Origin: Escherichia phage DTL
Sequence record: MG050172
Reading direction: 5' to 3' (one strand)
DNA: 45,814 bases
Numbering within the stretch: the first letter of the stretch is position 1; the number at the start of each line of letters is the position of its first letter. Made by a program: the position numbers and the translations under genes. Positions 504-45,039 of this stretch are shown one piece after another. The notes beneath the pieces were generated by a model, which was not told the DNA's origin, made no database searches, and saw only the letters and a program-made list of their open reading frames with translations.

Positions 504-585
504 AGAGCCTGATACTAGTAGCATTAGTCCCACTGCTTAGCTTTACTATCTTATACTTTATCGTAATGAATTAAGGAACTTATAA

Positions 586-1722
586 ATGGCAACTGCAAAG
601 ATTACCAACGAAGAACTTCGCGAAGAGCTGAAAAATGGCATGACCAACAAGGCAATCTCAGAGAAGTACGGAATGAACATTCGCAACGTTGAATTGCGTC
701 GTAGTAAATTGGCAAAATCCGGCGAGCTTCATGGAAACCCTGGAATTAAGAAGCTAGTTCCTGACGGCTATTTGGTCAAGGGGACTTCAACAATGATTGA
801 CGCTGAAGGTAACGAAAAGATTATATGGGTAAAGACTTCAATAGACAATGAGCGCCTTGAAGTACTAATGGAGCAAGCTCGAGAGGCATTTTGTTCAGAG
901 TTGCCAAAAGCTATTCCATCTCAATCACCTAATGTTAACTTTGATGATAACACGCTTTCTATGTATCCAGTTTTTGATTTGCACATTGGGGCAATGGCTC
1001 ACAAACATGAGTGCGGCGAAAACTATGATACAGCAACAGCAGAGAAGGTTATGAATGGGTTCTTTGACTACGCTGTAGATAAGGCACCAAACTCTAAGAA
1101 TGCTGTATTGGTATTGGGTGGCGATTTCCTACATTACGATTCTCTGGAGGCTAAAACCCCGGCATCAGGTCACATATTAGATAGTGACAGTCGTTACGCC
1201 AAGATTGTTTATGTCGCAATCCGGTCAGTTCGTCGTGCGATTTCTAGAATGATGGAAAAGCATCAAGTTATTGATATTAAAGTAATAAGTGGGAATCACG
1301 ACGAGGCTGGGATGGTTTGGCTTCGCGCTGCTCTTGCTGCATTTTATGAAGACGAACCGCGAGTAAATGTTGATGTTAGCCCAGCTGCAATGATGATGAC
1401 AAGCTTTGGAACGACGCTTATTGGATACACGCATGGTCACCAAATGCGAAAAGCCGATACCCGACTAACTGTTATGGCAACTGATTTTCGTAAGTTATTT
1501 GGTCAAAGTGAGTATGTTTACACACATAGCGGACACTGGCATTCGCAGAAGATTACAGAAACAAACCTGGGAATTGATGAGGTTCACGGGCAGCTTGGAA
1601 GTCCTGACGCGTACTCCGCAAATGGCGGCTGGCGCTCTCAACGTCAAGCGGCAGTTATTGTCTACCATAAAGAATTCGGTGAAGTTGGTCGATTCATTTG
1701 TCGCCCTAAAATGTTTAGCTAA
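586..1722 (+). CDS. putative metallophosphoesterase with N-terminal HTH-like region
   Basis: 378-aa ORF; calcineurin-like motifs LGGDFLHYD and SGNHDE; RBS AAGGAA upstream; stop TAA abuts ATAGCAC element. Confidence 0.5.
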   Translation: MATAKITNEELREELKNGMTNKAISEKYGMNIRNVELRRSKLAKSGELHGNPGIKKLVPDGYLVKGTSTMIDAEGNEKIIWVKTSIDNERLEVLMEQAREAFCSELPKAIPSQSPNVNFDDNTLSMYPVFDLHIGAMAHKHECGENYDTATAEKVMNGFFDYAVDKAPNSKNAVLVLGGDFLHYDSLEAKTPASGHILDSDSRYAKIVYVAIRSVRRAISRMMEKHQVIDIKVISGNHDEAGMVWLRAALAAFYEDEPRVNVDVSPAAMMMTSFGTTLIGYTHGHQMRKADTRLTVMATDFRKLFGQSEYVYTHSGHWHSQKITETNLGIDEVHGQLGSPDAYSANGGWRSQRQAAVIVYHKEFGEVGRFICRPKMFS

Positions 1723-1793
1723 TAGCACCTTTTGTTAAAACAGTAGCCGCGAAAGCGGCTATTATTGTTTTATAGAAACGACAGGAGATTGAA

Positions 1794-2222
1794 ATGAATT
1801 GGCATGAACATTACGATTACAAAGATGGAAAGCTTTATAGGAAGTACCAAAACCACAATCACCCGGCAGGAAAGGAGTGTGGCTGGATTGATTTAAGGGG
1901 TTACGTTAGGACTAAGCTGTTTTCAAAGATGACTTTTGCCCATCTAGTAATATGGGAAATGCATAACGGAGAGGTTCCCGAGGGCATGGAGATCGACCAC
2001 ATTAATGGAGTTAAGCATGATAACAGGATTGAGAACCTAAGGTGCGTAGATAGGTGGGTAAACTGCAAGAATATGGCGAAGAGAAAAGACAATAAAAGCG
2101 GGCAAACTGGAGTTAGTTACGTTGAGTCAAGAAATGTTTGGGTAGTAAGTATACATGTAAACAAATTCACACATAGTCACACGTGCGATACGAAAGATGA
2201 GGCAATTTCAATTGCAAAATAA
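1794..2222 (+). CDS. HNH homing endonuclease
   Basis: Signature AHLVIWEMHNGEVPEGMEIDHINGVKHDNRIENLR; RBS GGAG upstream. Confidence 0.8.
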   Translation: MNWHEHYDYKDGKLYRKYQNHNHPAGKECGWIDLRGYVRTKLFSKMTFAHLVIWEMHNGEVPEGMEIDHINGVKHDNRIENLRCVDRWVNCKNMAKRKDNKSGQTGVSYVESRNVWVVSIHVNKFTHSHTCDTKDEAISIAK

Positions 2223-2348
2223 ATTTACGCAGAAAACCCAGAATTCACAGAGAGGCACGGTAAATAGCACTTTTTGCCTAACCCACGCCGTAGAAATACG
2301 GCATAATCACCACATCGAAACGAGACAAACCAAGAGAGGAAGCACAAA

Positions 2349-2525
2349 ATGACTAAAATGATTTATTGCACCAAGAACAACTCCAAGACACTGCCATTTA
2401 CAGTTAACCAGCCGTACAATGCAGAGTATCAGGGTGACGGATACTACAAAATTTACGGTGACGATATGACGTGGATTTTAGCGCCGATTGACGGTTCGTT
2501 GGTTGAATTTATTATCGCAGACTAG
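2349..2525 (+). CDS. small hypothetical protein (58 aa)
   Basis: ATG after RBS-like AGAGAGGAAG; preceded by CATCGAAACGAGAC leader motif; followed by terminator. Confidence 0.3.
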   Translation: MTKMIYCTKNNSKTLPFTVNQPYNAEYQGDGYYKIYGDDMTWILAPIDGSLVEFIIAD

Positions 2526-2551
2526 CGCAGAAAAAACATAGCGTTACAAAC

Positions 2552-2578
2552 GGGGAGCCTTTTGGCTCCCTTTTTTTA
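2552..2578 (+). terminator. rho-independent terminator
   Basis: GGGAGCC-TTTT-GGCTCCC hairpin followed by T7 run. Confidence 0.7.
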
Positions 2579-2655
2579 TGCTTCTTTTCCGAGCGGTGCT
2601 AATGTATCATTCTTTTATTAACTTAAACATTGACAAATACATAAAGGTGGATCAC

Positions 2656-2871
2656 ATGAGGGAAGTAATTAACGCCGCTACGGCATCAACTGGCGGTGCT
2701 GCGTTTACTGGAGCTGCAACTGGTCAAATGACTATAGCAATAATCAGCCTTATCGCTCTAATCATTTTTGGAGCTTGGGGGGCTTATTGGAAGTATAAGG
2801 ATAGCCAGGCGATTCGCAGAGCGCTTGAATCTGGGGATTTAAAAACAGCAATCAATATAAGGAGCAAATAA
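2656..2871 (+). CDS. putative holin
   Basis: Small protein with hydrophobic TM segment IAIISLIALIIFGAWGAYW and charged C-terminus; RBS AGGTGG; immediately upstream of endolysin. Confidence 0.55.
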   Translation: MREVINAATASTGGAAFTGAATGQMTIAIISLIALIIFGAWGAYWKYKDSQAIRRALESGDLKTAINIRSK

Positions 2872-3357
2872 ATGAAGCAGAAGCTGCTAATTAGCGCGGC
2901 TACGGCTGCGGCAATATACATCGCAGCGCCGCTTATTGAGCTCGTTGAGGGTGTGGAGAACAAGCCTTACATGGACATTGCCGGAATCCCTACGGTGTGT
3001 TCCGGTATTACCGGTCCAGATGTGGTCTGGGGTAAAACATACAGCAACAGGGAGTGCCGGAACCTGCTTGAGAAACACATTGAGATTCATGACAAGCATG
3101 TTCAAAGTGCTGTAACCTACCCAATAGCACCGCAGACAAGAGCGGCGTTAATCAGCTTTAGCTACAATGTTGGAGGCTCAGCGATGAGGAAATCAACTGC
3201 TGTTAAGTTGATTAACCAGGGTAAAGTGGAGCAGGGCTGTAAGGCTCTAGGCCTTTGGAATAAAGCTACCGTTAATAGCAAGAAGGTTGTGGTTAAGGGG
3301 TTAGTAAATCGCAGGAATGAGGAGATTAAGTTATGCTTAAGTGGATTGCAGCGTTAG
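2872..3357 (+). CDS. SAR endolysin (T4-lysozyme-like muramidase)
   Basis: N-terminal signal-anchor-release segment; catalytic E-x8-D-x5-T pattern (ELVEGVENKPYMDIAGIPT); start overlaps holin stop (TAAATG). Confidence 0.75.
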   Translation: MKQKLLISAATAAAIYIAAPLIELVEGVENKPYMDIAGIPTVCSGITGPDVVWGKTYSNRECRNLLEKHIEIHDKHVQSAVTYPIAPQTRAALISFSYNVGGSAMRKSTAVKLINQGKVEQGCKALGLWNKATVNSKKVVVKGLVNRRNEEIKLCLSGLQR

Positions 3358-3722
3358 TAATGTGCGTAGCTTTATCTGGGTGTTCAGCAACATCTGCTCT
3401 GACTGGTTTGATTGGCAGTAAGCCAGAGATTAGCGCTCAAGCTGGTGCAGAGAACAATAAGGTTGGTGTTGGGTTAACGAACAAGGTTGACTCCAGTAAC
3501 TCCAGCGAAGCTACGGTTAAGGATTCCAAGGTTGGGTCACTGGATAGCTCGAGCGGGAAAAAGACTGCTGATAACTCTATTAAGGCCTCAACAATTACCG
3601 CCGAAAAGATTGAGATTACTAATAACGAATCATCAGCGCTTCCGTGGGTTGGAACAGGAGCTATGGGTCTGCTGGTTTTAATTCTCATGGCATTAATCTT
3701 AAGACGTAAAAAAGCCTCCTAA
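3333..3722 (+). CDS. unimolecular spanin (T1 gp11-like): OM lipoprotein signal plus C-terminal TMD
   Basis: Lipobox LSGC near N-terminus, Ser/Thr-rich periplasmic region, C-terminal TM helix GAMGLLVLILMALIL then RRKK; overlaps endolysin 3' end. Confidence 0.7.
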   Translation: MLKWIAALVMCVALSGCSATSALTGLIGSKPEISAQAGAENNKVGVGLTNKVDSSNSSEATVKDSKVGSLDSSSGKKTADNSIKASTITAEKIEITNNESSALPWVGTGAMGLLVLILMALILRRKKAS

Positions 3723-7516: not shown

Positions 7517-7739
7517 GTCTTTCTCCTCGCTGTTGATGGGTTAACTATATCCCCACTAACTCATAATGTCTTTAGCAAAAAGTGCCATTCGTTAGATTTA
7601 TGGATTGTTGCAGATATTGCAATGATTCTCATGATTATTGCGTATATAGCAATATTGCTTCAGATGCAATGATTTTTTTGATTGTTGCGAAAAGTGAAAT
7701 GAAGTGGTGAGTGAGTGAATGAAAGAATGATGGACTACC

Positions 7740-8170
7740 ATACAAGTTGATTTTGATTCTGGCTGAGCCATTTTAACGCTTACGCGTAACGCCAGTAGCG
7801 CGATGTAAGCCAACGCCTATCGTTACGCTAGTTACGCGCAGATACGCCATGACTTACACTATAAGTGCTTAATATATATATATATCTTCTTTCTATTATT
7901 ATTATTATTATTAATATTATTGTATGTAAGTCGTGTAACGGGGGTCCCGGCGATATCTATATGTTTTTTCCTATCAGGATGCATTATTTCCATTTTATGT
8001 GAGATTTAGCCATTATGGGGCCACCCAGCCAATTTACCTCGTTACACGAACGACGCGAAACTACATTGAGCTATAGCTGGGCTAGTGTGCCATTTAGCGT
8101 AACGACCCCCGGAAGTTACCAAAAATTACACTTGACTACATGTGTAAGTCGGGATATGATTGATTCAACT
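7740..8170. promoter_or_regulatory. divergent control region A: iteron-like GTTACGC repeats, (AT)n and (ATT)n tracts
   Basis: ~650 bp between divergent gene blocks; TCGTTACGC/TAGTTACGC direct repeats, palindrome TTACGCGTAA, (AT)7 at ~7873 and (ATT)6 at ~7894; homologous to 34400..34860. Confidence 0.5.
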
Positions 8171-26924: not shown

Positions 26925-27813
26925 TTGGAGAAAATCATGTTAAGTACAAAGTTTGAAAATCAGTTGCAAAGCCTTTTTCCTGGCGAGATTGTGACATTAA
27001 TCCAGGTTGACGGAACCTCTTTTGGCAGTCTCGTTTATTCGTTCCACAATGAGAACATTTCATACACACCTGAAGAGATCATGCTAGCCCAAATGAATGG
27101 CGAGCCACTACCAGAGAAAACCATCACCTTTCGTGGTGAAGAGTACGGGCCTCGCCCATTCGGTATCTCGGGCATTAATATGACCTCTGACGGAAAAGCC
27201 AACAAGGTTACACTAACAGTATCAAACGTAGACCAGCGCATTAGCGCATTGATTAGAACATACAACGGACTTGTTAAAGCTAAGGTTACCATATGGATTA
27301 CCACGAGAGATAACATCAATGAAGACGGAAGCATTGCTGATGGTGACTATCGCAGATTTGTTTACTTCATTGAGCGACCGAAGCAGGTTGATTACAAAAC
27401 TGCGTCATTTGAGCTTAGTAGCCCGATGGATATGGATGGCATTTACATCCCTGCCAGACTTGTTTGACTATCGCAGATTTGTTTACTTCATTGAGCGACC
27501 GAAGCAGGTTGATTACAAAACTGCGTCATTTGAGCTTAGTAGCCCGATGGATATGGATGGCATTTACATCCCTGCCAGACTTGTTCAATCGGTTTGCTAT
27601 TGGGCGTCCAGGGGCTGGTATCGTAGCGGTAATGGTTGCGGCTATGCTGGTAATAGATACTTCAACAAGGATGATGAGCCTGTGTCAGACCCCTCATTAG
27701 ACTTCTGCGCAGGAACTGTTAACAGTTGCAAAATTAGGTTTGGAGAGAATAATCAGCTGGACTTTGGTGGTTGCGCGGCAGCAAGTCTTCAGGCTAAAGC
27801 GAATCAATCATAG
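26925..27813 (+). pseudogene. minor tail protein (lambda L-like) frameshifted by a 121-bp tandem duplication
   Basis: Track ORFs 26925..27467 and 27271..27813 both encode DYRRFVYFIERPKQVDYKTASFELSSPMDMDGIYIPARLV in different frames. Confidence 0.6.
27344..27585 (+). repeat. perfect tandem direct duplication, 2 x 121 bp
   Basis: 27344..27464 and 27465..27585 identical base-for-base on hand comparison. Confidence 0.85.
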
Positions 27814-37311: not shown

Positions 37312-37734
37312 ATGCACGTAATTACTGGTCAGATTCGCCGCGCTCCATTCACTAAAGAAGGTCAAAACGCAAATGGTAACTGGAAAATGTTTGCGGTTGA
37401 CTTGAGTGAGAGATACAAGGATAAAGATGGGCAAACTCAGTACACTAACTATCGCGCTGTGCTTTTCGCTAAAGAGTCAATGCTAGATTGGTACAATGAA
37501 GCATTTCAAGAGGGTAAGGTTGTTAGCGTTAGCGCTGAAAGTCTGGCTGTTGATGTTCGTGATAAAGATGGTAAGACTTACGTAACGATTAACATGAATA
37601 ACCCTCGACTTGAGTTTAGTCAGCGTGGTGAAGGCGGTCAGCAACAACAGAAACCGCAGCAACAACAACAGCAGCAACAACAGCAGCGACAGCCGCAACA
37701 GCAAAACACATTCGACGGAGATATCCCATTCTGA
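37312..37734 (+). CDS. single-stranded DNA-binding protein (SSB)
   Basis: OB-fold-like N-terminus, Gln-rich linker, C-terminal DGDIPF tail. Confidence 0.8.
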   Translation: MHVITGQIRRAPFTKEGQNANGNWKMFAVDLSERYKDKDGQTQYTNYRAVLFAKESMLDWYNEAFQEGKVVSVSAESLAVDVRDKDGKTYVTINMNNPRLEFSQRGEGGQQQQKPQQQQQQQQQQRQPQQQNTFDGDIPF

Positions 37735-40043: not shown

Positions 40044-40967
40044 TTAGCTATTCAATAAATCACTCGCCTTATATATCTTCTTCCTGATGCCGCTCTTGAA
40101 TGAGTATTCATCATTTGGTATTACCACCTCAACGTTCCTGTCATCCGCAACGCAAAGTAATTCCATATCAAGATTGCACGCCACTCTCAACTTGTAGTTT
40201 TTGAGCGCATAAGCAACCATCTCCATATTGTAGCTGGAGTGGCAAACAAGCGCGCAGCGGTTCCCAGTAGCAAGATGAACGCGAACACCATCAATCCAAT
40301 TATCGACAAGATAAGCGTACTCATCACTTTTAAAGGTACCAATAACAGCAACTGACTGACGGGTATAATCTTTTGCAGCATAACTAACAACTCCCTCTTC
40401 ATTTATAAACATTACATTGCACATCTCATCTGACAACCCATCACTATAAGCCATAAAGCACGGTATTGCGTGTATTAGTTCTCCTGATTTTGTCCTGCCA
40501 ACATCAAAACCAAACTCGCTATAGATTCCCTCGTATATACTGAGCGGAGTTGATTCTACTCTTTCCGTCCTTTCCATTATCTCTAAGCACCTTTTGTGGT
40601 CAATCTGAGCGCCCATTTTGTATAGTTTGGTTCTTGATGCTTGCTTGTTTGCTTTAACTATAACCTCAATTGGTGTTAAGTTCAGCCAGTCACCAAGCAA
40701 ATTTACTGAATCGGCGAAGGACGATCCAGTGCACTTCATGACCCATCCTATACCGGAGTCACTTCCGCATTTCGAACAAACTGCCGCGCCATTTCCTTTT
40801 TCACTGCCTATTTCGTCGGTAAATCTGAATCTGTCAGTGCCAAAGCAGTATGGGCATGGTCCGTGCTTCTTACTTAGGTGTCTATCATTCCAACCAAGTT
40901 CCTTTGCATAAAATGATTTCCACAATCCGGCCATCTTAGGTATAACTTCATTCTTATCGTAATTCAT
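40044..40967 (-). CDS. DNA primase (zinc-ribbon plus TOPRIM-like)
   Basis: Zn-binding CPYCFG...CSKCG at N-terminus; acidic TOPRIM-like C-terminal half. Confidence 0.65.
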   Translation of the reverse strand: MNYDKNEVIPKMAGLWKSFYAKELGWNDRHLSKKHGPCPYCFGTDRFRFTDEIGSEKGNGAAVCSKCGSDSGIGWVMKCTGSSFADSVNLLGDWLNLTPIEVIVKANKQASRTKLYKMGAQIDHKRCLEIMERTERVESTPLSIYEGIYSEFGFDVGRTKSGELIHAIPCFMAYSDGLSDEMCNVMFINEEGVVSYAAKDYTRQSVAVIGTFKSDEYAYLVDNWIDGVRVHLATGNRCALVCHSSYNMEMVAYALKNYKLRVACNLDMELLCVADDRNVEVVIPNDEYSFKSGIRKKIYKASDLLNS

Positions 40968-41443
40968 TTGCTTAACCCGTGATTTTCGTGAAAGTTGTAT
41001 TTTCTCTCTGCTTCAATTCTTACTTTATACGCCTGCTCTGGAGTATCGAAGTTCCCAAGGTGTAGCTGCTTGCCGTCAACCTTGATGTGAGCCTTAAATT
41101 TTCCGTGATTTAGCTTTGCCACTCCACAATAACCAGTTGTTGATAAAACGCTAATCTTGCAATTTCTTGAGTTACCTTGATTTGTTGTTACTCTTAGGTT
41201 TTCTATTCTGTTATCTAATTTGTTATGGTTTATATGATCAATGTAGTCGCCATTTTGAAGTTCTCCATTAAACATCTCCCACACAACTCTATGTACATAA
41301 GTCCTAAAGCCATTAACAGACACTTTGTAATAGCCAGATGTAGATAGTGAGTTGCACTCATCGCCAACCTTAACACGTCTTGCAGTGCTAATCTTCCAAT
41401 GCAATTTGCCATCTACATAGTAAAAATAATCATGCCAGTTCAT
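40964..41443 (-). CDS. HNH homing endonuclease
   Basis: Motif HRVVWEMFNGELQNGDYIDHINHNKLDNRIENLR. Confidence 0.8.
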   Translation of the reverse strand: MNWHDYFYYVDGKLHWKISTARRVKVGDECNSLSTSGYYKVSVNGFRTYVHRVVWEMFNGELQNGDYIDHINHNKLDNRIENLRVTTNQGNSRNCKISVLSTTGYCGVAKLNHGKFKAHIKVDGKQLHLGNFDTPEQAYKVRIEAERKYNFHENHGLSK

Positions 41444-41495: not shown

Positions 41496-41969
41496 TTACT
41501 CTTTAGCTTTTCGTGCGGCTTCGTTAGCTGCCTTAATCTTTCGCCATGATCGACACTCTGGCTTGGTGGCCAATTCAGCCTCGGTAACCACGCGAAGCAT
41601 GTGACGCTTCTTGCATCTAAGTGTCAGCGGCTTGCCGTTACCGTCGAATTGCAGGTCTGGGCGGCAGAATGTGGCTCGAAAGCCTTCTCCATTTCGCTTA
41701 TAGTAGTTGTGCGACAGCTGGGCACCGCGTGCAGAAATCATTCCACGCTTAAACCACTCCTCTACAGCCTGTGGAGTTACCTTTAACTGCTTTGCGATAT
41801 TCGCCTTTGTGCCGAAGAAATCAAGAACTATCTCGAGTCTCGCTCGTAGTCCGGATCTTACTTCATCTTTTAAAACGTAGTAACCTGAAGGTCGCTTCCG
41901 TTTCTTCTTGTCTTCAGTGCGGACAGTTCCGTTATTCCCGTTAATGGTTCGCTTGTCAACTGCATTCAT
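41496..41969 (-). CDS. putative HTH DNA-binding protein / transcriptional regulator
   Basis: Basic N-terminus and HTH-like ANIAKQLKVTPQAVEEWFKRG. Confidence 0.4.
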   Translation of the reverse strand: MNAVDKRTINGNNGTVRTEDKKKRKRPSGYYVLKDEVRSGLRARLEIVLDFFGTKANIAKQLKVTPQAVEEWFKRGMISARGAQLSHNYYKRNGEGFRATFCRPDLQFDGNGKPLTLRCKKRHMLRVVTEAELATKPECRSWRKIKAANEAARKAKE

Positions 41970-42070
41970 TTAATCACCTCAATAGCATTTTTTGTTAAAA
42001 GTCATTCTGATTTGATGGTAGTATTGTACTCAATTAAACGCTACAAGACAATTTTTATAGGAATTTAGAT

Positions 42071-44066: not shown

Positions 44067-44540
44067 ATGAATTGGAATGACATTTTCGAGTATAGTGATG
44101 GGCAGCTATTCTGGAATGAGAAGGGAAAAAGCCGCAAGATGGGAGTGGCGGTTGGTGCCATTCGTGACAATGGTTATATCCAGGTAGGGTACAATCGCAA
44201 GCTGTACCTTGCTCATCGCATCGTGTGGGAAAAGCATAATGGGCCGATACCTGAGGGCATGATGGTAGATCACATAAACCATATTAGAGATGATAATAGG
44301 ATAGAAAACCTTAGATTGGTAAATTGCAAGGACAATACAAGAAACACCAGCATAAGGTCTGACAACAATACTGGTCACCACGGTGTTTGCTGGTGTAATC
44401 GCAGGCTTAAGTGGTACGCAAGGATAAATATTGACGGTAAAAATAAGTTTTTAGGTTACTTCATAACAAAAGCTATGGCCATAGAGGCAAGAAAGCAAGC
44501 CGAGAAGTTATATGGATTCCACGAAAACCATGGAGTTTAG
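44067..44540 (+). CDS. HNH homing endonuclease
   Basis: Motif HRIVWEKHNGPIPEGMMVDHINHIRDDNRIENLR. Confidence 0.8.
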   Translation: MNWNDIFEYSDGQLFWNEKGKSRKMGVAVGAIRDNGYIQVGYNRKLYLAHRIVWEKHNGPIPEGMMVDHINHIRDDNRIENLRLVNCKDNTRNTSIRSDNNTGHHGVCWCNRRLKWYARINIDGKNKFLGYFITKAMAIEARKQAEKLYGFHENHGV

Positions 44541-44961
44541 AGTGAAAATTACAGACAAGGTTGATTATATTGAGTTTTACCCAGGTCCAGTTAAGTCTTG
44601 CCCTAAAGAGGATGACGAACAAATCTTTTGCTCTGATTGGGTTAAGTATAACTATCCAGAGATGGTATTTTTCCACTGCGTGAATGAGGGTAAGAAAACC
44701 ATTGGACAAGCAAGAAAGGACCAGGCAAAAGGTTTGCTTAAGGGTGTCTCGGACTGCTTATTCCTGATACCTGAATCACTTAGAGGAAAGCACCCTTTCG
44801 GGGCAATAGAGCTAAAGAGAGCAGGAAAAACTCAGGCCAGTCCAGTCAGTGACGAGCAGAGGTCCTTCCTGAAAAGCGTAAGAGAATCAGGCGGTTTCGC
44901 GGCCGTAGCTTACGGACGTGAAGGATTTCTAGCGGCATTTAGAGAGATGATTTCAAAATAG
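44530..44961 (+). CDS. VRR-NUC domain nuclease
   Basis: Pattern DCLFLIPE...IELKRAGKTQASPVSDEQ; start ambiguous (44512 or 44530). Confidence 0.5.
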   Translation: MEFRVKITDKVDYIEFYPGPVKSCPKEDDEQIFCSDWVKYNYPEMVFFHCVNEGKKTIGQARKDQAKGLLKGVSDCLFLIPESLRGKHPFGAIELKRAGKTQASPVSDEQRSFLKSVRESGGFAAVAYGREGFLAAFREMISK

Positions 44962-45039
44962 CACGAATTGCTAAAGACGTTTCGGTGAGTTGGTGTATTA
45001 TCTATTCATCGAAACGAAACGCACAAAGAGAGAAATAAA

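Follow-up and report, generated by a model that had tools for sequence, protein, structure and literature searches.

A predicted helix-turn-helix metallophosphoesterase of Escherichia phage DTL, a candidate DNA nuclease of T1-type phages

Which gene allows T1-type phages to break down the chromosome of their host? Both T1 and TLS degrade the host genome, and according to the 2024 re-annotation of TLS the responsible gene is still unidentified (PMC11447400). In this work we focused on an open reading frame (ORF) at positions 586 to 1722 of Escherichia phage DTL (sequence record MG050172), whose entire 45,814-nucleotide (nt) sequence is called the window below. A preliminary description, made from the sequence alone, had read the ORF product as a helix-turn-helix (HTH) fused to a calcineurin-like metallophosphoesterase, had suggested a regulator or nuclease acting early in infection, and had named it a candidate binder of a palindromic ATAGCAC element. 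The analysis reported here confirmed that observation and partly supported its interpretation. We propose, with a probability of roughly 0.45, that the protein is a DNA nuclease resembling Mre11 and PdeM, tethered by its HTH and serving the DNA and nucleotide metabolism of the phage. Its most likely role would be the breakdown of DNA, probably that of the host chromosome.

The window is a circularly permuted but whole genome of an Rtp-like, T1-type phage (Drexlerviridae). Its end-to-start junction aligns unbroken to adjacent Rtp sequence, and its first 6 kb are 88-89% identical to phages ZL19, Rtp and IME253. The ORF is the orthologue of T1 gp16, of rtp61 of Rtp, annotated there as 'highly similar to gp16 of phage T1', and of TLS gp66, which lies directly 5' of the holin gene and carries the label 'proof-reading exonuclease'. 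The product is 97% identical to its counterpart in phage ZL19; for the nearest named relatives the value is about 88%, and for other Drexlerviridae 63-70%. The profile of PHROG 704 ('DNA repair exonuclease'), the family of T1 gp16, rtp61 and TLS gp66, is matched with an E-value of 4.7e-153 (residues 4-377 against profile positions 2-389/390). The window protein resembles this family in length, motifs and N-terminal HTH, and differs from it in nothing substantive. Homologues were found by tblastn in 2047 phage records, with phages of Klebsiella, Salmonella, Vibrio, Rhodobacter, Campylobacter and Flavobacterium among them, and an exhaustive search yielded 4699 cluster representatives at E<=0.001, nearly all of 370-420 amino acids (aa). 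PHROG 704 homologues also occur in Dhillonvirus, Jerseyvirus, Casjensviridae and in Vibrio and marine phages. Judged by these sequence comparisons, the gene is a real and widely conserved gene of T1-type phages and a further member of a very large, named family. Within the literature on Drexlerviridae phosphoesterases, HTH-metallophosphoesterases, escape mutants, T1 gene 2.5 and transcriptomes of Drexlerviridae, no functional study of the PHROG 704 family was found. The 'phosphoesterase' that figures in the Metis papers belongs to host defence and is a different protein from that of the phage.

The catalytic part occupies residues 120-378, and all five superfamily motifs (DxH / GD / GNH(D/E) / H / GHxH) are present in it. 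Conservation was assessed in alignments of 120-143 homologues with approximately 30-40% identity to the window protein. Invariance was seen for D131, H133, G179, D180, N237, H238, H283, G316 and H319, and conservation of at least 90% for H183, G236, D239 and H317; a third alignment gave the same set with small differences. In motif II, G179, H183 and D185 range from at least 90% conservation to invariance between alignments. Active-site residues that remain invariant at such low overall identity are the signature of an active enzyme, and the window protein is very probably an active metallophosphoesterase. A family-specific loop between motifs II and III, TPASGHILDSDSR, follows the pattern TPxSGHxLDxDxR, with T191 invariant and P192, L198, D199, D201 and R203 at least 90% conserved; it is a candidate substrate-binding element. 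The two motifs quoted in the preliminary description, GGDFLHYD and GNHDE, are real and were placed correctly, while FDLHIG, THGHQ and SGHWH had been overlooked.

Standard domain models capture this enzyme poorly. The window protein alone scores 18.4 bits against the Pfam Metallophos cut-off of 21.5 (E 0.0031), which marks the family as a divergent branch, and 30 of 120 family members match Metallophos (Pfam PF00149 clan) at E<=0.01. With a single-sequence phmmer search of the PDB, only chance-level matches were obtained (ArnD and a viral glycoprotein). A match to GlgS in Pfam and NCBIfam (residues 217-253) was taken as chance, since it lies far under the cut-offs and inside the catalytic domain. 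The AlphaFold (AF2) model of the full-length protein, built from 121 sequences, has a mean predicted local distance difference test score (pLDDT) of 90.9 and shows the beta-sandwich of the metallophosphoesterase fold. Foldseek aligned this model with 122 PDB chains at E<=0.001, and all of the 50 listed are metallophosphoesterases, headed by Thermotoga maritima Mre11 (4o43, E 5e-9) and followed by Rv0805, the PolD DP1 exonuclease and Vps29, with GpdQ and acid sphingomyelinase also in the list. A fold search of BFVD returned only uncharacterised phage phosphoesterases, some auto-labelled 'DNA polymerase II small subunit'.

The N-terminus appears to be of HTH type. Three helices are seen in the full-length model and again when residues 1-108 are modelled separately. 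The isoelectric point of the first 55 residues is 9.8, and the putative recognition helix is IRNVELRRSKLAK. The segment that the preliminary description had quoted as HTH, NEELREELKNGMTNKAISEKYGMNIRNVELRR, indeed lies at residues 8-39 (nt 607-702). On its own the window protein again stays below threshold (HTH_24, E 0.027; GerE, E 0.077; TtrR/FixJ C-terminal domains, E 0.01-0.04), so that for both domains the calls rest on family-level evidence and structure prediction. Among the N-termini of 120 family members, Sigma70_r4_2 is matched by 14 (best 1.5e-9) and GerE by eight (best 2.4e-8), above the Pfam thresholds; 12 match the extracytoplasmic function (ECF) sigma-factor model, and HTH_8, HTH_1, HTH_23 and other families are matched as well. 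The family profile finds GerE (E 0.037) and RhlR in the PDB at E of about 0.04. In Foldseek the N-terminal model, being small, gave only E-values above 0.1; the best local superposition was on LiaR (4wul, probability 0.95, root-mean-square deviation 2.8 A over 45 residues), followed by DosR (3c57, probability 0.91), VraR, FixJ and RcsB, with deviations of 2.8-2.9 A for LiaR, DosR and VraR. Helix pattern and sequence pattern (LT..E...L..G.tnkeIa...g.s..tV..h...i..Kl) agree with the LuxR/GerE/NarL and sigma-70 region 4 domains, but LuxR/GerE/NarL domains have four helices where three are modelled here, and some family members fit LysR-, Fis- or homeodomain-type models better. We assign an HTH with moderate confidence and describe it as LuxR / sigma-70-region-4-like; its subtype varies across the family. 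A conserved beta-hairpin and helix connect it to the catalytic domain, and W81 and K83 of this connector are invariant in a 40-sequence N-terminal alignment. The two-domain layout of the preliminary description is thus borne out by motif invariance, by the Pfam matches of family members and by the predicted structure; a domain search with the single protein leaves both modules below threshold.

What would such an enzyme cleave? Nucleases are among the closest known systems. The motif forms DLHIG, GDFLH and GNHD compare with DxHLG, GDLFH and GNHD of Mre11/SbcD, with which the fold is shared, and T. maritima Mre11 is the best catalytic-domain match of the family profile in the PDB, through an alignment (sDWHLG / GDLLH / GNHD) that spans motifs I-II, III and V. 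The similarity is marginal (sequence E 0.15, TM-scores about 0.4-0.46), and the N-terminal HTH and the TPxSGHxLDxDxR loop are features of the window protein and not of Mre11. PdeM, also called MPE, the ligase-associated Mn-dependent DNA endonuclease, offers a second comparison, as it is a stand-alone nuclease that needs no Rad50. Its model (NCBIfam TIGR04123, 'ligase-associated DNA damage response endonuclease') is matched below threshold by 25 of 120 family members (best 1.6e-5), all far under the curated 150 bits, the window protein itself reaching 13.2 bits (E 0.042). PdeM has no HTH and is the product of a bacterial repair-operon gene. Taken from Mre11-type motifs, the top solved-structure match and the PdeM matches, nuclease is the best-supported activity class, and we consider DNA the favoured substrate, at somewhat better than even odds.

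The surroundings of the gene agree with a place in DNA metabolism. In the window, an operon runs from an element-type promoter at 44958 through small ORFs and ends with the HTH-phosphoesterase gene; a helicase gene, an HNH gene and a VRR-NUC gene stand immediately upstream of the small ORFs, and the lysis cassette lies 3' of a terminator-like hairpin. The gene is read as part of the helicase / VRR-NUC operon, behind the same promoter type as small early genes, and the early action in infection that had been suggested for it is plausible on this arrangement. Webervirus Sin4 has the order helicase, VRR-NUC, Dam methylase, small ORFs, HTH-phosphoesterase, HAD-type 'polynucleotide kinase', deoxynucleoside monophosphate (dNMP) kinase, terminator and holin, and the arrangement in ACG-M12 resembles it. 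An unrelated contig of lambdoid type has a dNMP kinase gene directly upstream and a holin gene directly downstream of the phosphoesterase gene. A marine contig carries the gene inside a replication module of polymerase A, DUF2800 and ssDNA-binding protein, one gene away from a dCMP deaminase, and genes of thymidylate synthase or dGTP-diphosphohydrolase type often occur within a few kb. The Jerseyvirus gene has a promoter of the type found at replication genes, the Dhillonvirus gene stands just upstream of the terminase genes, and in Casjensviridae and a Mesorhizobium prophage the gene follows the lysis genes. Flanking small ORFs were compared across seven phage backbones for a conserved small partner, and no detectable similarity among them was found.

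We suggest that these features belong to a two-module enzyme, in which a basic HTH (residues 8-44) would be joined by the beta-hairpin and helix to a binuclear-metal phosphodiesterase (residues 120-378) whose active site, of the Mre11/SbcD/PdeM type, is complete. The HTH would keep the enzyme bound to double-stranded DNA, and the metal centre would cleave phosphodiester bonds, giving a DNA-tethered nuclease that works without a Rad50/SbcC partner. As the product of a phage operon for DNA and nucleotide metabolism, it would serve in the breakdown of DNA, probably the host chromosome, and feed nucleotide salvage.

The role in host-chromosome degradation, which is argued by analogy, is the more tentative part of this proposal, and taken by itself we hold it to be rather doubtful. 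The analogy is with phage T5. Its putative metallophosphatase, A1, is both required for the degradation of host DNA and sufficient to bring it about; A1 works together with a DNA-binding protein, A2, and also interacts with RNA polymerase (bioRxiv 10.64898/2026.04.02.716235). Like the window protein, A1 is of the phage metallophosphoesterase type, with DxH, NHD, HGH and GHxH motifs. In five homologues of A1, 46-48% identical to it (P0460, P0462, P0463, P0490 and P0502), residues ~5-45 form an N-terminal HTH (HTH_23, HTH_38, CENP-B_N or HTH_7), the same layout as here. In T5, where the A1 locus lies at 1709-3376, the DNA-binding partner A2 is encoded separately by the phage itself. An HTH within the chain of A1 relatives and a separate A2 in T5 suggest gene fusion or fission in the A1 family. 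A1 differs from the window protein in its length (556 aa), in an unrelated 290-aa N-terminal half, in being the product of a pre-early gene and in being needed for second-step DNA transfer as well.

Several points weigh against this proposal. Homology to T5 A1 was sought and is not demonstrable beyond motif III (NHDxxxSxWL): hhalign gave a probability of 10-11% over 22-23 columns, rising to 34% over 216 columns with the greedy setting, and hmmsearch gave an E-value of 0.018 in a two-sequence search. Homology to T5 A2, tested by hhalign and hmmsearch, was not demonstrable either. The parallel is therefore one of architecture and possibly of function, an analogy and not family membership. The capping domain of Mre11 is absent, as the AF2 model of the window protein ends with the catalytic core at residue 378. 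No Rad50/SbcC is annotated in collinear Rtp, and synteny with Rtp accounts for all window ORFs of at least 300 aa; in one unrelated contig, an SMC_N protein is encoded 7.5 kb from the phosphoesterase gene. The Foldseek matches are generic to the superfamily, since Rv0805, PolD DP1 and Vps29 come within one to two orders of magnitude of Mre11 at TM-scores of 0.4-0.5, and 'DNA repair exonuclease' is for PHROG 704 an annotation label only. In several phages the gene sits among tail, head, lysis or terminase genes. Adjacency to a dNMP kinase gene is not universal, the kinase genes of T1 and the window being elsewhere, so that the association is recurrent and not fixed. The phage has other nucleases that might carry out host DNA degradation (a homologue of exonuclease VIII, VRR-NUC, and three HNH proteins), temperate phages and prophages carry the gene too, and the sparing of the phage's own DNA has no explanation in a degradation model.

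A nuclease acting on the phage's own DNA would account for the Mre11- and PdeM-type evidence equally well. It could process ends for Erf and exonuclease VIII, remove blocked or hairpin ends, or trim replication or concatemer intermediates before packaging. The gene is read as co-transcribed with the helicase and the Holliday-junction-resolvase-like VRR-NUC protein, its positions in Dhillonvirus and the marine phage fit packaging and replication, and some homologues are annotated 'recombination endonuclease'. The missing Rad50/SbcC-like ATPase and capping domain count against such a function as well, such phages already encode a set of exonuclease VIII, Erf and SSB, and the recurrent dNMP kinase, dCMP deaminase and thymidylate synthase neighbours point instead to nucleotide supply. 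We regard this reading as somewhat unlikely.

Less probable still is a small or RNA-borne phosphoester as substrate, which we consider unlikely. The enzyme might hydrolyse cyclic or linear nucleotide signals (anti-defence, or of cAMP type), or 2',3'-cyclic phosphate or 3'-phosphate RNA ends during tRNA repair, together with a neighbouring polynucleotide kinase/phosphatase. The top Foldseek matches include GpdQ and the cyclic-nucleotide phosphodiesterase Rv0805, a T4 PseT-like 'polynucleotide kinase' is the next gene in Webervirus and ACG-M12, and Rtp encodes a Stp-like PrrC activator. Metallophosphoesterase modules heal RNA 3' ends in Clostridium thermocellum Pnkp, which also speaks for an RNA substrate. 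A conserved HTH of DNA-binding type is, however, hard to explain in a small-molecule enzyme, motif II is the Mre11-type GDxxH and not the GDxxDRG of lambda-phosphatase and CthPnkp-type enzymes, and the family is far wider spread than the polynucleotide kinase gene. The product of that gene in Klebsiella phage Sin4 (42308-42796) starts with a DxDGT HAD-phosphatase motif (ICIFDLDGTL) and thus looks like the 3'-phosphatase half of T4 PseT, not like a kinase.

Further alternatives concern transcription and the element near which the ORF ends. The ATAGCAC palindrome is part of a longer element, aaATAGCACnnnTTGnTAAa, that holds the inverted repeat TAGCA-N5-TGCTA; the promoter-linked repeat can also be written ATAGCACnnnTTGnTAA or ATAGCACnnnTTGCTAAA. 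The window contains 17 matches with at most two mismatches. A -10-like hexamer (TATAAT, TATAGT or similar) begins 21-23 nt after TTGnTA in 14 of the 17, at exactly 22 nt in 12, and a conserved start region, CATCGAAACGAA, is often found 3' of the hexamer. To act as a normal -35 box TTGnTA would have to lie 5 nt further downstream; the centre of the dyad falls near -42. The strict phase between element and -10 box and the implied class-II-activator-like position may be new to the literature. In TLS, 21 copies of the repeat were reported, with others in T1, Rtp and Rogue1; its function is given as unknown, and stoperator, enhancer and UP-element readings have been offered (PMC11447400).

A combined role at this element would make the protein a single-chain counterpart of T5 A1/A2: the host nuclease of T1 and TLS, whose HTH would also act at ATAGCAC...TTGCTAA promoters or on RNA polymerase and so couple degradation to transcription control. 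We judge this very unlikely.

It is equally hard to believe, and if anything slightly less probable, that the protein is a sequence-specific regulator, with the HTH binding the ATAGCAC...TTGCTAA palindrome as activator or repressor and the phosphoesterase serving as accessory or dimerisation module. Arguments can be found for it in the HTH, which is of the LuxR / sigma-region-4 kind found in dimeric transcription factors, in the fixing of TAGCA-N5-TGCTA near -42 at promoters that have no normally spaced -35 box, which suggests class II activator geometry, in the position of the gene just before the lysis cassette of the lambdoid-type contig, the place of late regulators, and in the reported interaction of T5 A1 with RNA polymerase. 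The copy by the ORF belongs to the downstream promoter: in Rtp the corresponding element runs directly into the -10 box of the rtp62 promoter, so that its closeness to the ORF reflects the promoter of the next gene. In the window, element and -10 box appear to have been separated by the insertion of an HNH_3 homing-endonuclease gene (1794-2222), which has a hairpin of its own (1742-1763), and the element occurs twice (1722 and 2264) around this insertion where Rtp has one promoter.

Comparison between phages also argues against a regulator. The recognition helices of the window protein and of its Dhillonvirus and Jerseyvirus homologues are nearly the same (NIRNVELRR, SLRNVYMRK and SRRNVQLRS, with the common pattern xxRNVxxR, in proteins 43% identical), but the element has two matches in the Dhillonvirus genome and none in the Jerseyvirus genome, against 17 in the window. 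The family extends to Vibrio, Rhodobacter, Flavobacterium and marine phages, while the repeat is reported or seen only in T1-like (Drexlerviridae) phages. The gene itself is apparently transcribed from an element-bearing promoter, and the catalytic residues, being completely invariant, show that selection acts on enzymatic activity. Jerseyvirus promoters are conventional (TTGACA-17-TATAGT) and carry a different palindrome, AATAG-N4-CTATT, in the spacer and overlapping the -10 box; a common operator for this palindrome and the T1 element was rejected, as their spacing and their position relative to the -10 box differ. In Salmonella phage PK1 (Jerseyvirus), palindrome-bearing promoters of the replication type were seen at 7598, 11398, 23524, 33306 and other positions, and one of them drives a small opposite-strand cassette within the tail genes that holds the HTH-phosphoesterase homologue.

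A Cro/P22_Cro-type HTH protein, homologous to T1 gp23 and Rtp rtp52, matches the element better in distribution and gene context. It was found in 823 records with Drexlerviridae-type hosts and is restricted to Drexlerviridae-type phages. Its gene has a conventional promoter, TTGTCT-17-TACAAT (42051 to 42023), and the element at 41982 lies in its 5' leader, in the intergenic region 41970-42070, divergent from the helicase gene; an element in this divergent control region is common to the window, Rtp and Webervirus Sin4. On this evidence of distribution and position, the Cro-like protein would be the better candidate for element binder. Binding of the promoter palindrome by the HTH-phosphoesterase is very improbable.

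Most improbable is a protein phosphatase like lambda NinI, whose gene stands just before Q and the lysis genes of lambdoid phages: the superfamily is the same and one contig (L014) has the gene between a nin-like region and a holin gene, but the window protein has DxHxG, GDxxH and GNHD in place of the PPP-family signatures GDxHG, GDxVDRG and GNHE, and neither the 50 listed structural matches nor the sequence matches include a protein phosphatase. A virion protein was also considered, as several relatives carry the gene among tail or head genes, and was set aside as less probable: gel-band proteomics of T1-like virions found only seven structural proteins, with the phosphoesterase not among these, and the Jerseyvirus gene lies on the opposite strand behind a replication-type promoter.

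Table 1. Features of the HTH-metallophosphoesterase locus and of the promoter element in the window
Feature	Position	Strand	Remarks
HTH-metallophosphoesterase ORF	586..1722	+	ATG start, 378 aa, stop codon within coordinates; complete
Shine-Dalgarno-like AAGGA	573..577	+	8 nt before ATG; read from sequence
Three-helix HTH, aa 8-44 (helices 8-16, 21-28, 32-44)	607..717	+	Predicted from AF2 models, local Foldseek fits and family Pfam matches
Connector: beta-hairpin aa 62-86 (VPDGYxVKGxST...WVKT), then helix aa 88-105	757..900	+	Conserved; AF2 models
Metallophosphoesterase catalytic domain, aa 120-378	943..1719	+	AF2 pLDDT mostly >90; Foldseek PDB matches
Motif I FDLHIG, aa 130-135	973..990	+	D131, H133 invariant; Mre11-like DxHxG
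Motif II GGDFLHYD, aa 178-185	1117..1140	+	D180 invariant; G179, H183, D185 invariant or at least 90% conserved; Mre11-type GDxxH
Loop TPASGHILDSDSR, aa 191-203, between motifs II and III	1156..1194	+	Family-specific, TPxSGHxLDxDxR
Motif III GNHDE, aa 236-240	1291..1305	+	N237, H238 invariant
Motif IV THGHQ, aa 282-286	1429..1443	+	H283 invariant
Motif V SGHWH, aa 315-319	1528..1542	+	G316, H319 invariant; H317 invariant or at least 90% conserved
Repeat copy ATAGCACCTTTTGTTAAAA	1722..1740	+	Overlaps ORF stop codon; part of downstream promoter
G+C-rich hairpin, then T-rich tail	1742..1763	+	Terminator-like; would end the operon of the ORF
Probable promoter of the operon ending with the ORF, repeat ATAGCACGAATTGCTAAAG	44958..45001	+	TATTAT starts 22 nt after TTGCTA
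Cro/P22_Cro-type HTH protein	41496-41969	-	Homologue of T1 gp23 / Rtp rtp52
Element starts (with strand)	+1722, +2264, -5733, -6167, -7588, +9192, +9907, +10723		Window
Element starts (with strand), further	+11173, +22506, +27810, -34451, +36547, +39980, +41982, +44958		Window

The coordinates of the features are collected in Table 1, and some further observations were made in the window. Three HNH_3 genes (1794-2222 on the plus strand, 40964-41443 on the minus strand and 44067-44540 on the plus strand) lie at different places in the replication and DNA-metabolism regions; one separates the helicase gene from the VRR-NUC gene, another the gene of the Cro-like regulator from that of the primase. 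A perfect 121-bp tandem duplication (2.0 copies, 100% identity; 27344-27585) lies inside a lambda-L-like minor tail gene and splits its frame into overlapping 180-aa ORFs (26925-27467 and 27271-27813), the Rtp counterpart being one gene of 756 nt. The duplication is either disabling or an artefact of assembly. A single tRNA-Arg gene (anticodon TCT) is located at 12077-12154 on the plus strand, as reported in other T1-like phages. Two short repeats were noted. A (TAT)9 microsatellite lies at 7894-7921, between genes or in a region of small ORFs, and the 3' end of an SSB-like ORF (37312-37734) contains an imperfect CAG/CAA (Gln-rich) repeat (37639-37708).

Drexlerviridae commonly occur in the gut, sewage and fermentation plants, and count as candidates for phage therapy. 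That T1-type phages degrade the chromosome of their host and reuse its nucleotides has been known for a long time, and the ORF studied here provides a concrete candidate gene within a family that spans thousands of sequence clusters from enterobacterial, Vibrio, alphaproteobacterial and marine phages. If the protein were only a repair-type nuclease, the finding would be an ordinary one. If it is the host-DNA nuclease, it would explain the higher transduction frequency reported for T1 mutants defective in host-chromosome degradation. Two unrelated phage lineages, represented by T5 A1 and T1 gp16, would then have arrived at an HTH-linked metallophosphoesterase for host takeover, and a source would have been found for the mononucleotides that are sensed by newly described defence systems.

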